Below, piece by piece: positions 1,182-64,000 of a stretch of 64,000 nucleotides of DNA. Position numbers and translations under genes: made by a program. The stretch's first letter is position 1; each line of letters begins with the position of its first letter. Source of the stretch: Bdellovibrionales bacterium (GTDB taxonomy: Bacteria; Bdellovibrionota; Bdellovibrionia; Bdellovibrionales; UBA1609); NCBI GenBank assembly GCA_965200875.1, contig OZ241456.1, positions 224,001-288,000 of the forward strand, written 5' to 3'. The notes under the pieces are model-generated. The model saw only the letters and a program-made list of their open reading frames with translations, was not told the origin of the DNA and ran no database searches.

Positions 1182-3299
1182 CTAGTACCAATCCCTATCT
1201 GTCAAATGATCCTCGATTTTGTTGTCAAGCCCTCTAAAACCTTTTATAAATTCGGCAGAAATCAATTTCACAGAATAGCCAACTCGTCCGCCGTAAATAC
1301 AGCCATTAGCAATCTTCCCTTTTGTTGTTCCGTCCAATATATTAAAAAAATCATGTCCCCACTTGTCACAATGCCCGAATTTGGTGTTGTCGATATTGTT
1401 ATAAAACTCCCCGGCTTGATATTTGTTTGTCGGGGGATTCCAGCCGGTGAGTAGTTGATCAAGGTTTCCTATTTTATACCAAGGTTTTGGAACAGGTGGC
1501 GGGGGTACATGAGAACGGATCTGGATCCATGGGGGCTGGATGTGAGTAGATACTCCGGTCTGCTCTAAAATGCCACTTCTGTAAAAATTGTTATTGGTGT
1601 CTCTGAATGTGCCCAGATCCCCTCTTAAACTGTTGGCCGTTTCCCCACCGGCTTCTTCAAAAAGATTTTTGATTTTTGGAAAGTGGGTTTGCATGTAATA
1701 GGGTAAAATAGTGAAATAAGTCACATCGAAAATATCTGGAGATATCGCCACTAGCTCCCATTTTCGGGCTAAAATCCCTAAGCCAGGGGGTATTAGACCT
1801 CTAGCCAAAGGGTCTCTATCATCATGATAATTGTCTTTTGAGTAAAATAAGATATTTTTTTCATTTCTGTTAGTGCTTTTTATATGATTAGCCCAGTAGT
1901 AATGTACATAAGGTGATCTCAAACCATATTCGTCTCCTGGATAGCGGGAATAATTGGGAGTGAATTTTTTGTCAAGTTCCATAAGATTTCCACTGGGTGA
2001 TTGGCCACCATTCTTGGGTTTTGGCAGTCGAGGATCTGCTTTTTTTGGTTGCATTGGGCCTATGGTGCCTCCAAAGGGTTTGGCAAAAGCTTTGGCTTTT
2101 AGGTTCACTTTATCCGCTCCAAAGGAGGGTAAAAAGATTTGATTTTTATATTTCAAATCAGCTTTTACAGTGTAGAAAATCATAAAGTTTTTGTTTTTAT
2201 AGAGACCGGCAGAGGGTGCACAGAAGAAATCATTTTTACAATCAGGCCAGGGATTTTTATTTGTGTTAAGTATCTGTGTAAGCTGGAGGATATCGTGGTT
2301 TGAAGCTGCTGCTGGCCCATTTCGCAAATAATCTAAATTTTTTTGGCAGTTTGTTTTTGATCCCTTGAAGTTGCCGAAAAGTCCCAGATGATATAAGGGT
2401 ATGTCCTTCAACCACTCTTTAGGGTTCTTTCCTTTTAGGGAGTTAAATTGCTTAAAAGACTTTTTTGGTTCCTCTTCAAAAGCTTTTCTGTTTATAAAAG
2501 TTAAGTTTTTTTTAAAAGTTTTTAAGACTCCCTTCTCTATAGATTTTCCGTCAAGATCTGTGCCATATAGATGATCAGGACGACCGGACATAGTTTCTGC
2601 AAGATGATATATCATCTTTTTTCTGGCACTTTGGTCCATATGAAAATGCCTAAAGGTCCAAGCTCCAAGTAGCCAGGAATTATAGCCATAAATGTCACAA
2701 TGTTCCTTAAGTTGCTCTTGAATTTTAAGCCCGGTGGCTCTTATCTTGTTTAAGGCACTGGAGAGACTTCCTAAAGTTCCGCTGAGTGTGGGCACGCTGG
2801 GTGCCTTGATATCCTGTAACATTTTATGGCAGAGCATATCTTTGGTTTTTTCTAGTTTGACAGTGCTGACGGTGCCTCCTGTTTTTTGTATAGGATCTCC
2901 CCAGTCCTTATGACCCACGCAGAAAAAATAAGGCCCCGGGACTGTTGTTGGATGAAAAGCGGGAAGAGAGTGTTCTCGATTTTCGACCGGGAGCGCGGGT
3001 TTCCAAATTGGAACATTGGTCAGACCTATATTCCCCAGCACCCGATATCTCCAGGTCATAAGTTTCCAAGACTGGCGGATTTGGTAGTTTATATGAGCAA
3101 TGGCGTTTAGCATTTCTGCCTGTTTCATAGCACCGTAGTAGGCGGCGATATCGACAGAATTTTGAAGATTGATTTTATCATGCACCACTAAAGTGATATT
3201 TAAGGACATGGCAAACAGAGTAAACAACACAGGAAAAAGCAGAATAATAAAAATGGCCAACTGCCCTGTATTTTTACGGCTGTTTTTTTGATTTTTCAT
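1182..3299 (-). CDS. TadG/Flp pilus-assembly-related large protein (Tad domain)
   Basis: Pilin-like N-terminus (KNTGQLAIF + TM + KINLQNSVDIAAYYGA). Start set at ATG 3299; ORF track starts at 3335. Confidence 0.7.
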   Translation of the reverse strand: MKNQKNSRKNTGQLAIFIILLFPVLFTLFAMSLNITLVVHDKINLQNSVDIAAYYGAMKQAEMLNAIAHINYQIRQSWKLMTWRYRVLGNIGLTNVPIWKPALPVENREHSLPAFHPTTVPGPYFFCVGHKDWGDPIQKTGGTVSTVKLEKTKDMLCHKMLQDIKAPSVPTLSGTLGSLSSALNKIRATGLKIQEQLKEHCDIYGYNSWLLGAWTFRHFHMDQSARKKMIYHLAETMSGRPDHLYGTDLDGKSIEKGVLKTFKKNLTFINRKAFEEEPKKSFKQFNSLKGKNPKEWLKDIPLYHLGLFGNFKGSKTNCQKNLDYLRNGPAAASNHDILQLTQILNTNKNPWPDCKNDFFCAPSAGLYKNKNFMIFYTVKADLKYKNQIFLPSFGADKVNLKAKAFAKPFGGTIGPMQPKKADPRLPKPKNGGQSPSGNLMELDKKFTPNYSRYPGDEYGLRSPYVHYYWANHIKSTNRNEKNILFYSKDNYHDDRDPLARGLIPPGLGILARKWELVAISPDIFDVTYFTILPYYMQTHFPKIKNLFEEAGGETANSLRGDLGTFRDTNNNFYRSGILEQTGVSTHIQPPWIQIRSHVPPPPVPKPWYKIGNLDQLLTGWNPPTNKYQAGEFYNNIDNTKFGHCDKWGHDFFNILDGTTKGKIANGCIYGGRVGYSVKLISAEFIKGFRGLDNKIEDHLTDRDWY

Positions 3300-59365: not shown

Positions 59366-59722
59366 GGGGGCGAGTGGCTTCGACGCAGGTCATGAAGCTT
59401 CGGGAGCATGCAGAGGCGCGTGAGGACCTCTTAAAAAACATGTACAAAAACTAATTGGCAACTTTTTTCCAGTTGCTCTTGCTGCTTAATTTAAACAAGT
59501 GGTCGCTAACCGCGCTTTTGACGATGAGGTGTGGAAGGCGTTGATTCAGTCGTCTCGGCTTTTTACTGTTTTGTCAGGGTAGATAGGCTTAAACTTACTG
59601 ATAAAAACCCGATGGGTTGTGTTGGTACCAGCCTTTCGGTGTGTTTTGTATCAACTAAGCATGTAGCTGGCCTGAATGTGGATTATTTGCGGACACGAGT
59701 TCGACTCTCGTCGCCTCCACCA
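59366..59722 (+). ncRNA. ssrA: tmRNA (SsrA), tag (A)GNFFPVALAA
   Basis: 5' GGGGGCG..GGCTTCGAC; 3' T-arm GAGTTCGACTC and CGCCTCCACCA with G3:U70; tag frame 59457-59489; extended -10 TGtTAAAAT at 59344-59352. Confidence 0.95.
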
Positions 59723-61498: not shown

Positions 61499-61574
61499 GG
61501 GGGTGTAGCTCAGCTGGGAGAGCATCCGATTTGCATTCGGAAGGTCGCAGGTTCAATCCCTGTCACCTCCACCA
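61499..61574 (+). tRNA. tRNA-Ala(TGC)
   Basis: 76-nt cloverleaf: GGGGGTG/CACCTCC acceptor with G3:U70, anticodon stem TCCGA/TCGGA, loop TTTGCAT, TTCAATC T-loop, encoded CCA. Confidence 0.97.
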
Positions 61575-61647
61575 TTATTGATTTTGATAACAGAACTTAA
61601 AAAAAGAGATACAGACAAGGTTTTGGATATAAAAAAGAGGATCACTT

Positions 61648-62178
61648 ATGGACAAACAAAACCAATATATAAAATCAATGGAATTTTGCCAAGCTACTAT
61701 TAAAAGAATGGCTGATAATTCTTTCCGTTTGAAACAATGGTTTCTTTTAGCTGTAACCGCAATGTTCACTGTCTTTTCCAAAATTATCTTTTCTGAAAAT
61801 CAAGAATTTCATATAGACAGTCTCTTTCTTCTGGCTCCCTTGGTTATCTTCCCTTATCTGGATGCTTATTACTTGCAACAGGAAAGGCTTTTCAGAGAGA
61901 TTTACAATGATTTTATGAATTGTATAAACAACAATGAATCAAAAAGAAAACCCTTTGATATGAAACCCACAAAGGAGCAAAGAGTGAAATTTTCTATATG
62001 GAATGTGATTTTTTCGATCAGTGTAGCTCCATTTTATTTCATTATTATTTGTGTCTTGCAAGGGTTTATTGTTTATCGATCTTCTATTGACAACCCTTGG
62101 TTTTGGATGGGTGTTTTGCCGATTTTATTGATTATCTTGGGATTGATTTTTAAGAAAAAAACTTCACACCAAAAATAA
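61648..62178 (+). CDS. Multi-TM hypothetical protein (RMAxNSFxxKxW / LDAYYLxQERxFR type), candidate defence effector
   Basis: About 4 hydrophobic segments and the stated motifs; first gene after tRNA-Ala, near TIR genes. Confidence 0.7.
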   Translation: MDKQNQYIKSMEFCQATIKRMADNSFRLKQWFLLAVTAMFTVFSKIIFSENQEFHIDSLFLLAPLVIFPYLDAYYLQQERLFREIYNDFMNCINNNESKRKPFDMKPTKEQRVKFSIWNVIFSISVAPFYFIIICVLQGFIVYRSSIDNPWFWMGVLPILLIILGLIFKKKTSHQK

Positions 62179-62206
62179 GAATCAGTTGGTCCTGAATAAG
62201 AAGATA

Positions 62207-62313
62207 TGGATGACCAACCTTTCCTGGGGCTGGTTACCCTAATATGTGAAGTTATCCTTCTTATAAGGTATAAGGAGGGTTAATAAAACTTTTAACATAA
62301 AGGAGGTCATCCA
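62207..62313 (+). ncRNA. Structured left non-coding end of IS110 (candidate bridge/seek RNA)
   Basis: Nested stems: tggatgacc/ggtcatcca, ccttt/aaagg, tatgt/acata, aagtt/aactt, tccttcttata/tataaggaggg. Confidence 0.55.
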
Positions 62314-62793
62314 ATGAAAAAGAACATACTCCATGTCGGGCTTGATGTCGATGATAAAGCCTTTCATGGCACAGCTTTTTACTCAAAAACAGGGGAAATA
62401 TTTGAATTTTCCTGCCGACCCAATAATGCCTGTTTGCTGAAAAAACTGCAAACTCTCCAAAAAAAGGGCTTTAAACTCCATACTTGCTATGAAGCCACAT
62501 ACATCGGATACAGCCTGCACCGCTTTTTAATGAGTAAAGGCATTCAAAATAGCATCATTGCTCCATCTTTGATCCCAAAAAACCCAGGAAAATGTGTTAA
62601 AACTGATCGCATAGACAGTAAAAATCTGGCCATTTATTTCTCCAAAGAACTTCTTACAGCCATATGTGTACCAGACAAGAGTGATGAAGAGGTCCGGGAT
62701 GTTATCCGTTCCAGAAGCTTTTTAGTTCGTTTAGTGGACAAGTACTTTTTCACAGACACATTTTGCAAGAAAACAATCAATTATAGACTTTGA
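62314..62793 (+). pseudogene. IS110-family transposase, truncated (N-terminal DEDD domain only)
   Basis: VGLDV (D11), CYEA (E60), KTDRID (D98/D101), APSLIP, E.VRD..R.R; similarity appears to end near residue 139 and the C-terminal domain is absent. Confidence 0.88.
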
Positions 62794-62794
62794 T

Positions 62795-63304
62795 TCAATT
62801 TCCGGCATTTCTTGCCGCTTCCTCAATCCAACTCCCTATATTATGATAGCCATTATCATTAACCCAATCATAGGTTTTGTAAATATAGTCATATCCATTA
62901 TGTAATTGAGATAAAGGTGTATTTCTTCCATTGTTATTAACTGTTAAAACATCCAATGGATTTTGTCCTAGACAATCAGTAACCTCATCTTTATTTTTTA
63001 TATTATGAATATGGATGCCTAAGATACCTTTTCCTTCTGCATAACTCTTTTGAATTTCATATTTAACATATTCTCTTGTGCTGGTTTTCGCTCCAATTAG
63101 AACTACAGTTACAGAAGTTCCTTTCATTTCTCTGTTGATCCAATTTTTTATAGCTTGATCTCCTTGTTTTTTTACTGACTCCCAACTTGCATCATCCCAA
63201 AATCCGGCTGTTGTATTTCCTTGAGTAATCCATGAGTTTCTGACCTAGCTTACTCGCCAATTATCTCTTTGATAATGAAAACTGAAAAAAACATGCCTAG
63301 CCAT
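62795..63304 (-). pseudogene. TIR-domain (ThsB/MTH538-like) gene with in-frame TAG at codon 20
   Basis: Manual translation from ATG 63304: MARHVFFSFHYQRDNWRVS*VRNSWITQG...WESVKKQGDQAIKNWINREMKGTSVTVVLIG...YVKYEI; the ORF track only shows the part from 63127. Confidence 0.88.
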
Positions 63305-63315
63305 AAAACTATCTC

Positions 63316-63690
63316 CTATTGAAAAATCTTTTTTAAATTTTCCCAACTCCAGCTGTAAAGCCGTCCGGCATCAGGGACTCGCTTATAATTTTCATCATTC
63401 CGGCCAATAATCTGAGCAATGTTTTTATTATTCTTTCTGGCCATATAAACCTCTTTTAAAACTCCAGGGGCTTTGTGGGTTTTTTCACCAAGAACCACCA
63501 AAACAACATCCACGCTTTTTATTCGATTTTCTGCTTCTTCTTCCCAATTTCTTTCCGGGGCGGCTTCTTTCATTGAACAATCTGTCACTTCAAAAGGAGA
63601 GTCTGGATTTTTGGATTGTCCAATAATAAGGTCCTTTAAGTATTTGTCATTATCAAAGTCAAAGCTGATAAATACACGGGTTTTATTCAT
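63316..63690 (-). CDS. TIR-domain protein (ThsB/MTH538 DUF1863-like)
   Basis: RVFISFDFDND, W....ENRIKSVDVVLVVLGEKT, GVLKEV putative catalytic Glu, WSWENL. Confidence 0.88.
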   Translation of the reverse strand: MNKTRVFISFDFDNDKYLKDLIIGQSKNPDSPFEVTDCSMKEAAPERNWEEEAENRIKSVDVVLVVLGEKTHKAPGVLKEVYMARKNNKNIAQIIGRNDENYKRVPDAGRLYSWSWENLKKIFQ

Positions 63691-64000
63691 CTTCAGAAAA
63701 ACCTCTTTGCTTTAATTCTGTTAAAAGATTTTCACTGTATCTTCTGTCTTCAAAATATTTCTTATCTCTTTCCATTTCTTCGTTAGGTAAGTTATTTAGT
63801 GCTTTTTCTACATCAAATATTGGCAAACCTTCTAAAAATGAAATTCCCAGTCTGACATTTTTTGGATATGTTTTATAAAACCTTTTTTCCATAGATACCG
63901 CTTTATTTCCTTGTTTTTCTTCTAGTATAATTGTGGGAATATCCATAAAATGGTCCCGGTGTTTTCGGTCCTCCGGGATGTTGATTTTTCTTGGTGTTTT
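63683..64000 (-). CDS. C-terminal part of an unidentified protein (gene runs beyond the window)
   Basis: Frame is open to base 64000 (KTPRKINIPEDRKHRDHF-MDIP...); stop overlaps the TIR start by 8 nt (ATGAATAA). Confidence 0.7.
   Translation of the reverse strand, partial: KTPRKINIPEDRKHRDHFMDIPTIILEEKQGNKAVSMEKRFYKTYPKNVRLGISFLEGLPIFDVEKALNNLPNEEMERDKKYFEDRRYSENLLTELKQRGFSEDE

Follow-up and report, generated by a model that had tools for sequence, protein, structure and literature searches.

A partly decayed pair of a TIR gene and a PDC-M50A membrane protein gene, likely a type V Thoeris system, behind a tRNA-Ala gene in a Bdellovibrionales bacterium

Gene content of the locus

The DNA analysed here is a stretch of 64,000 nucleotides (nt), referred to below as the window, which corresponds to C1:224001-288000 of the 1.87-Mb genome of a Bdellovibrionales bacterium (the source genome, G000); sequence beyond the window edge was also examined. 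Near its right end, behind a tRNA-Ala gene, the window carries a membrane protein gene on the forward strand, a fragment of an IS110 insertion sequence (IS), and, on the reverse strand, two genes for short TIR proteins (TIR-1 and TIR-2) preceded by two very small genes, orfU' and giyA. An earlier reading of the letters alone (the sequence-only reading) had proposed a new TIR system with an unusual effector. The effector is indeed not of the SIR2-SLOG, TM-Macro, or caspase kind, but the system is not an undescribed one: the locus is the candidate pair PDC-M50 of PADLOC, and it is likely a type V Thoeris system, with the membrane protein as its putative ThsF.

The membrane gene, at 61648..62178 (forward strand), is the multi-transmembrane gene that the sequence-only reading had seen after the tRNA, and it encodes a 176-amino-acid (aa) all-helical protein of the PDC-M50A family, likely a ThsF-type effector. 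The protein matches four PADLOC PDC-M50A models (best PDLC04686, E 2.8e-28), finds no Pfam family at the cut-off, and keeps the family motifs R20, S25-F26, K29, and LDAYYL-QER. Its structure model is all-helical (pLDDT 79), and hydropathy gives three hydrophobic segments above threshold plus a weaker fourth, compared with two such segments in 52 and three in 31 of the 87 other PDC-M50A members. An extra C-terminal hydrophobic helix (residues 150-168) sets the protein apart from the typical members of 130-145 aa and is common to a clade of about 27 close relatives. The family is large (441/481 pattern matches in GTDB, and 2587 proteins with a Bacillaceae query) and is present in B. thuringiensis. 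Foldseek with the model returned no match at E <= 0.001, and fold comparison gave generic helical bundles only (Z <= 8.1). The Atlas neighbours are 30 unnamed clusters, with 8xMP as the nearest named one at 0.86; a direct comparison to 8xMP gave E 0.15 and 12 bits, below the cut-off of 30, and neither a Macro domain nor SLATT was matched in the protein.

TIR-2, at 62795..63304 (reverse strand), is a ThsB gene of 169 codons whose product carries Glu83 and falls in the type I-like clade; it is recognised by PF08937, PADLOC, and PDB matches. Read through its premature stop with an X, it matches the PADLOC models ThsB1 (E 1e-68) and PDC-M50B (E 1.4e-64). Over its length it aligns with the ThsB of PDB 6LHY and 9B7D (E 5e-32), which we take to be that of B. 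cereus, and Glu83 falls on Glu85 of that protein. According to the available text of Ofir et al. (bioRxiv 10.1101/2021.01.06.425286), a Glu85 to Gln mutant of ThsB abolished defence. TIR-1, at 63316..63690 (reverse strand), is an intact ThsB-type TIR of 124 aa with Glu80 (PF08937, E 2.4e-8) and is separated from TIR-2 by a gap of 11 nt. Both TIRs are thus short and ThsB-type with the expected Glu, as the sequence-only reading had it, with PF08937 matches and the motifs GVLKEV and YVKYEI present. TIR-1 is 34.7% identical to the caspase-linked TIR of the same genome. An intact TIR and caspase (type IV Thoeris) operon lies about 1 Mb from the locus, at C1:1266667-1268018 (L026).

The stop in TIR-2 is a TAG at codon 20 (63245-63247, reverse strand). 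It is found with 0 differences in a separately assembled 13.7-kb contig of sequencing run X1, possibly from the source sample, and three related-strain contigs of run X1 carry Gln at this codon; we would like to note that all of the related-strain evidence, for the stop, the IS, and the gene layout, comes from one sample. A sequencing error is not supported, since the same letters appear in contigs from two runs of a single sample, possibly the source. Recoding or suppression of TAG was rejected, as 177 long open reading frames (ORFs) end in TAG and reading TAG as Gln shifts the coding density only from 0.79 to 0.80. The genome uses table 11, and no CTA-anticodon (amber) tRNA is present among its 36 tRNAs. 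The stop is genuine, and TIR-2 is a pseudogene in this strain and intact in related strains.

The IS110 fragment lies between the convergent membrane gene and TIR-2, at 62196..62730 (forward strand), and comprises the 5' 535 bp of the element, that is, the left end and the first 139 codons, with the 3' part lost. It is 100% and 99.4% identical to copies at C1:1794517-1795051 and C1:1686975-1687509 of the source genome. At the truncation junction is a dispersed repeat of about 32 bp (62745..62776) with more than 10 partial copies in the genome. The membrane gene and TIR-2 are about 0.6 kb apart here; two related-strain contigs run from the end of the membrane gene into TIR-2 without IS110, and in one of them the two stop codons are about 100 nt apart. 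At least two related strains retain the membrane gene, TIR-2, and TIR-1 in the same convergent layout, and because they keep this module without the IS, the fragment is a later insertion. An inversion driven by the IS, or an effector lost from between the genes, was considered and rejected, as the relatives without the IS show the same convergent layout. The partial decay of the locus noted in the sequence-only reading, which had also recognised the IS110 remnant, is therefore borne out both by the TAG and by the IS110 fragment.

Pairing of PDC-M50A genes with TIR genes

We compared the locus to 85 loci with PDC-M50A-family genes, of which 6 came from 200 other genomes of the order and 79, including many kin, were kept from GTDB. 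PDC-M50A is present in 6 of the 200 genomes of the order, with an adjoining TIR in 6/6. Across all of the loci, 58/85 have a ThsB-like TIR no more than 500 bp away (a count made with a ThsB-centred TIR profile, so that an undercount is possible), with 37 of the 58 being TIR-2-like and none TIR-1-like, and two or more TIRs are found in 20/85. A tree of TIR proteins (81 rows: TIR matches of 110-250 aa no more than 150 bp from a membrane gene, together with 12 rows for reference; rooted at the midpoint for display only) joins TIR-2 to 37 M50A-adjacent TIRs with support of 99/99. On plasmids, both of the best two matches to TIR-2 lie next to a PDC-M50A gene, in one case divergently. The third-best sits in a type I ThsA1-ThsB operon, and because of this the clade of TIR-2 also serves an effector of 3'cADPR (a cyclic ADP-ribose isomer). 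The link between PDC-M50A and TIR genes is strong but not exclusive. Together with the PDC-M50A match, it upholds the view of the membrane gene as the likely effector, one that is not SIR2-SLOG, TM-Macro, or caspase.

Relation to PDC-M50, type V Thoeris, and other known systems

PADLOC, which the sequence-only reading had suggested running, assigns the membrane gene to PDC-M50A and TIR-2 to PDC-M50B/ThsB1, so that these partners are described ones, while the frame upstream of TIR-1 matches nothing and is not a standard ThsA. Both components of PDC-M50 therefore match here. The locus differs from PDC-M50 in that it is convergent rather than operonic, its M50B is a pseudogene, it has an additional TIR from a different clade, and its M50A, at 176 aa, has the extra C-terminal helix. 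A literature search for PDC-M50 as a term found no paper, and for ThsF, DUF2270, and type V Thoeris the only report among the matches listed was the preprint of Yirmiya et al. (bioRxiv 10.64898/2025.12.03.692087). In the available text of that preprint, Thoeris types V-XI are validated, and type V consists of ThsB and ThsF, a three-transmembrane effector annotated as DUF2270 and predicted to form a heptamer. Type V is there found in about 1.2% of genomes; of two cloned systems, one responded to 3'cADPR, and the type V TIRs cluster together with those of types I and IV. About 18 further effector types are predicted and unverified. The type V strains named in the preprint were not among the best 120 of the 2587 PDC-M50A homologues, nor in the 7 named clusters.

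The resemblance to type V is that a ThsB TIR from the type I-like clade, catalytic Glu included, neighbours a small membrane protein of several helices that has weak similarity to DUF2270. Profile comparison (hhalign) of PDC-M50A to true DUF2270 gave a weak match that is in register (E 0.007, probability 5%), and 5/88 PDC-M50A members match DUF2270 at E <= 1 (best E 0.002). The locus differs from type V in its convergent layout and broken TIR-2.

Several observations weigh against a type V assignment, or against a functional pair of this kind. The similarity of PDC-M50A to DUF2270 is below the Pfam cut-off and weaker than that to 8xMP, which is matched by 11/88 PDC-M50A members (best 3e-5; hhalign E 3e-4). 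True DUF2270 genes had a TIR nearby in 0/12 loci, and the comparison to ThsF is indirect, made via the DUF2270 annotation and not with ThsF sequences. All of the loci with a TIR within 500 bp (58/58) are co-directional, whereas the layout here is convergent, and 27/85 PDC-M50A loci have no ThsB-like TIR within 500 bp. In 251 evenly drawn genomes of another phylum, only 2/7 PDC-M50A loci had a ThsB match, and a close relative of TIR-1 was found in 0/85 PDC-M50A loci.

Other Thoeris types fit less well. TIR-2 is like type I ThsB (PDB 6LHY and 9B7D) over its length, but the SIR2-SLOG ThsA of type I is not here, and the proteins of the island match no ThsA or SIR2 model. The TM-Macro effector of type II is not represented by the membrane protein, which is all-helical and has no Macro match, and neither is the SLATT or 8xMP effector of type VII Thoeris or TIR-8xMP. 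TIR-1 falls in the clade of the short TIRs of type IV Thoeris (TIR and caspase, as given in the available text of Rousset et al., bioRxiv 10.1101/2024.10.24.620036), TIR-8xMP, and TIR-SLOG, but the present locus lacks caspase, 8xMP, and SLOG genes. Elsewhere in the genome, at C1:1534724-1535934 (L022), a ThsB TIR abuts a 175-aa gene without a Pfam or PADLOC match, an arrangement which recurs in two other members of the genus (L023 in G012 and L015 in G002); the 175-aa gene may encode an effector of one of the predicted Thoeris types. Two further loci (L016 in G012 and L017 in G006) have a SLATT/DUF4231 gene, a ThsB TIR, and a 246-252-aa SEC-C-containing gene in that order, and these appear to be type VII-like Thoeris with an ancillary gene.

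Proposed function and alternatives

On balance, we favour reading the locus as a partly decayed PDC-M50 pair, likely of type V Thoeris, in which TIR-2 would signal to the membrane protein and TIR-1 would likely be a second sensor. By analogy, TIR-2 in its intact form would sense phage and make a cyclic ADP-ribose signal derived from nicotinamide adenine dinucleotide, probably 3'cADPR because of the clade to which TIR-2 belongs. The cyclic ADP-ribose isomer would then open the membrane protein, which is encoded convergently and would form oligomers, and the cell would be arrested or killed. TIR-1, likely an extra sensor from another TIR clade, would feed the same effector, most simply as a second specificity, because divergent ThsB genes elsewhere add specificities. 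Sensing, the identity of the signal, pore formation, and anti-phage activity are what we infer from described relatives, and the pair is probably disabled in the source genome unless TIR-1 can trigger the membrane protein.

It is possible, though we consider it unlikely, that the same logic from TIR to membrane pore holds and PDC-M50A is not ThsF; PDC-M50A would then be ThsJ (type IX) or belong to the roughly 18 effector types that are predicted and unverified, and ThsF would be a sister family such as 8xMP. The weakness of the similarity to DUF2270 favours this, as does the fact that 8xMP genes also adjoin ThsB-type TIRs (2/15 loci, and plasmid neighbours), and the type IX TIR also makes 3'cADPR, its effector being unnamed in the available text of the preprint (bioRxiv 10.64898/2025.12.03.692087). 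Against it, 8xMP itself shows no DUF2270 signal (hhalign E 0.18; 0/5 members), and those TIR partners of 8xMP that were examined fall outside the type I-like clade of TIR-2 in the tree. A more doubtful alternative concerns TIR-1, which could be a separate sensor with a different signal (such as N7-cADPR) that acts in trans on the type IV caspase, or an orphan whose effector has been lost, in which case the membrane gene would have been orphaned by the stop in TIR-2. The tree groups TIR-1 with caspase-, 8xMP-, and SLOG-linked TIRs (99/94) and with no M50A-adjacent one, the TIR-caspase operon of this genome is intact, and an 8xMP gene above the cut-off was not found in the genome. However, in at least two related strains TIR-1 remains closely linked with the other two genes, TIR-2 and the membrane gene, and divergent ThsB genes feeding one effector are normal according to the available text of Ofir et al. 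(10.1101/2021.01.06.425286), as are multiple TIRs in the 20 PDC-M50A loci counted above.

We consider it very improbable that the gene upstream of TIR-1, with or without giyA, is the effector or a regulator of a new TIR system. The sequence-only reading had described an operon of an unknown gene, TIR-1, and TIR-2; the order, an overlap of 8 nt, and the 11-nt gap hold, but the single upstream gene does not. What was visible in the window is a shadow frame (129 aa in full) which joins two genes, orfU' and giyA, and overlaps giyA in another frame. Substitutions across five giyA homologues fall at 148 third, 58 first, and 37 second codon positions of the giyA frame, and the shadow frame has stops in 3/5 of them. 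The real neighbour, orfU' (63683..63892, reverse strand), does overlap TIR-1 by the 8 nt, yet it is a soluble ORF of 69 aa with no hydrophobic segment by hydropathy, and searches with the 129-aa frame and/or the 69-aa ORF gave no Pfam, PADLOC, NCBIfam, or PHROG match. Four homologues of it are in the databases, three of them with the same length of 69 aa (66-68% identity). Three of the four are on contigs with the same lengths (9217, 9538, and 4960 bp) as contigs of close membrane-gene homologues; going by these lengths, orfU' and the membrane gene are probably linked in one sub-lineage. A profile search of 108 other genomes of the family recovered orfU' in 3. All three copies follow a small membrane-anchored ORF, and the fetched loci, one of which is truncated at a contig end, contain no TIR. 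In one related-strain contig other DNA replaces orfU', and TIR-1 is immediately preceded by a ribosome-binding site of its own (AGGAGG); moreover, a known effector candidate, the membrane gene, is already present. The sequence-only reading had set beforehand, as a test, whether the upstream gene accompanies these TIRs in other genomes: it stands without them in all 3 and is replaced in the related strain, against which the probable linkage to the membrane gene in one sub-lineage must be set. orfU' and giyA are accessory genes, not effectors. In one orfU' locus (L218 in G060, 1471-2135, reverse strand), a gene that is presumably DUF2188-like, by motif, is followed by the small membrane ORF and then the orfU' homologue.

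A PDC-M50 pair makes the locus one more, partly inactivated case of a widespread pairing of a TIR with a membrane effector, and not a new system. The decay of such a module is on view here: its sensor carries a nonsense mutation, a piece of IS110 lies between the genes, and intact versions exist in co-occurring strains. The intact relatives also pair PDC-M50A with a member of the TIR-1 clade, a combination not seen in the 85 other loci, and thus offer a natural test of one effector reading two signals.

The variable slot behind tRNA-Ala

The tRNA-Ala(TGC) gene at 61499..61574 (forward strand), placed there by both ARAGORN and Rfam in agreement with the sequence-only reading, forms the left border of a variable slot. 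In the related genome G001 a glyoxalase gene directly follows this tRNA; in the source genome the glyoxalase gene starts at 65232, 3.6 kb further, and other genes fill the slot in four further members of the genus that were examined. The sequence does turn richer in AT after the tRNA, but the shift is mild: GC content is 34.3% at 61575-64000 as against 37.0% for the genome contig, which is the 15th percentile of windows of the same size. Att repeats that would mark an integrative element were not found: the 9.4 kb that follow contain no copy of the tRNA 3' end (10-25 nt), and no integrase gene was recognised among the genes of the island. A promoter and terminator scan of the locus gave signals no higher than those in shuffled sequence. 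At 1420-1578 of our locus file L001 (whose coordinates are window coordinates minus 60000), related-strain contigs connect the end of a 172-aa gene to the tRNA region on the opposite strand, which suggests a local inversion among strains. A tmRNA gene that ARAGORN did not call lies at 59366-59722 of the window (forward strand), with 137 bits by Rfam.

giyA and related small genes

The operon is headed by giyA, a 75-aa gene in which only the 3' part (63903..64000, reverse strand) is inside the window; the whole gene is at 63903-64130 (C1:287903-288130). The sequence-only reading had noted that the window edge cuts the operon, and sequence past 64000 shows that the operon ends 130 nt beyond it, with the 5' end of giyA. 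Its family alignment has a conserved G-x-T, R14, E44, and Y64; giyA-type homologues of 73-76 aa are found at L004, L005, L006, L030, L034, L035, L041, L042, and L047. The label of GIY-YIG-like is offered as a lead only, from GIY-YIG motifs, this one alignment, and sub-threshold matches: Atlas neighbours include GIY-YIG clusters at 0.89, likewise only a lead, and a paralogue reaches E 0.05 in Pfam, below threshold. The motifs are ordered with the YIG-like one first and a Y-x-x-Y-x-Y strand last, which, on the same motifs and alignment, may point to a circular permutation. A PDB profile search with giyA gave two chance-level rows only, a literature search for a giyA-like leader found no paper, and the one locus retrieved from JGI metagenomes, a 14-residue match in a housekeeping context, was judged to be chance.

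Of the seven intact giyA-type genes, six lie ahead of other genes on the same strand: this operon, a TIR-8xMP pair, a CD-NTase gene, a Schlafen AlbA_2 gene, a HARE-HTH nuclease-like gene (at a distance of about 400 nt), and a DUF6765 gene. The seventh has no such partner. The copies ahead of a second CBASS, an AAA_13 gene, and a further AlbA_2 gene are broken. The wider family, with 9 copies in the source genome and members in 19/108 other genomes, is mostly found in variable spots without clear defence character. We regard as a long shot the idea that giyA is a minimal, possibly permuted GIY-YIG-like leader (a regulator or capture module) shared by CBASS, TIR-8xMP, Schlafen, and this TIR pair, and that it heads a two-signal Thoeris hub here, in which type I-like and type IV-like TIRs would feed the membrane effector and the distant caspase. 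The recurrence of giyA at the head of different defence operons is nevertheless an unexplained lead for specialists. At C1:1689549-1692378 (L041) a truncated giyA copy stands ahead of a CBASS-like operon with a CD-NTase gene, a 147-aa gene, and a gene that looks patatin-like by eye. A second mini GIY-YIG-like gene, giyB (L001 4475-4696, forward strand), lies past the window edge in the same slot, divergent from giyA, and several paralogues are followed by small membrane-anchored ORFs.

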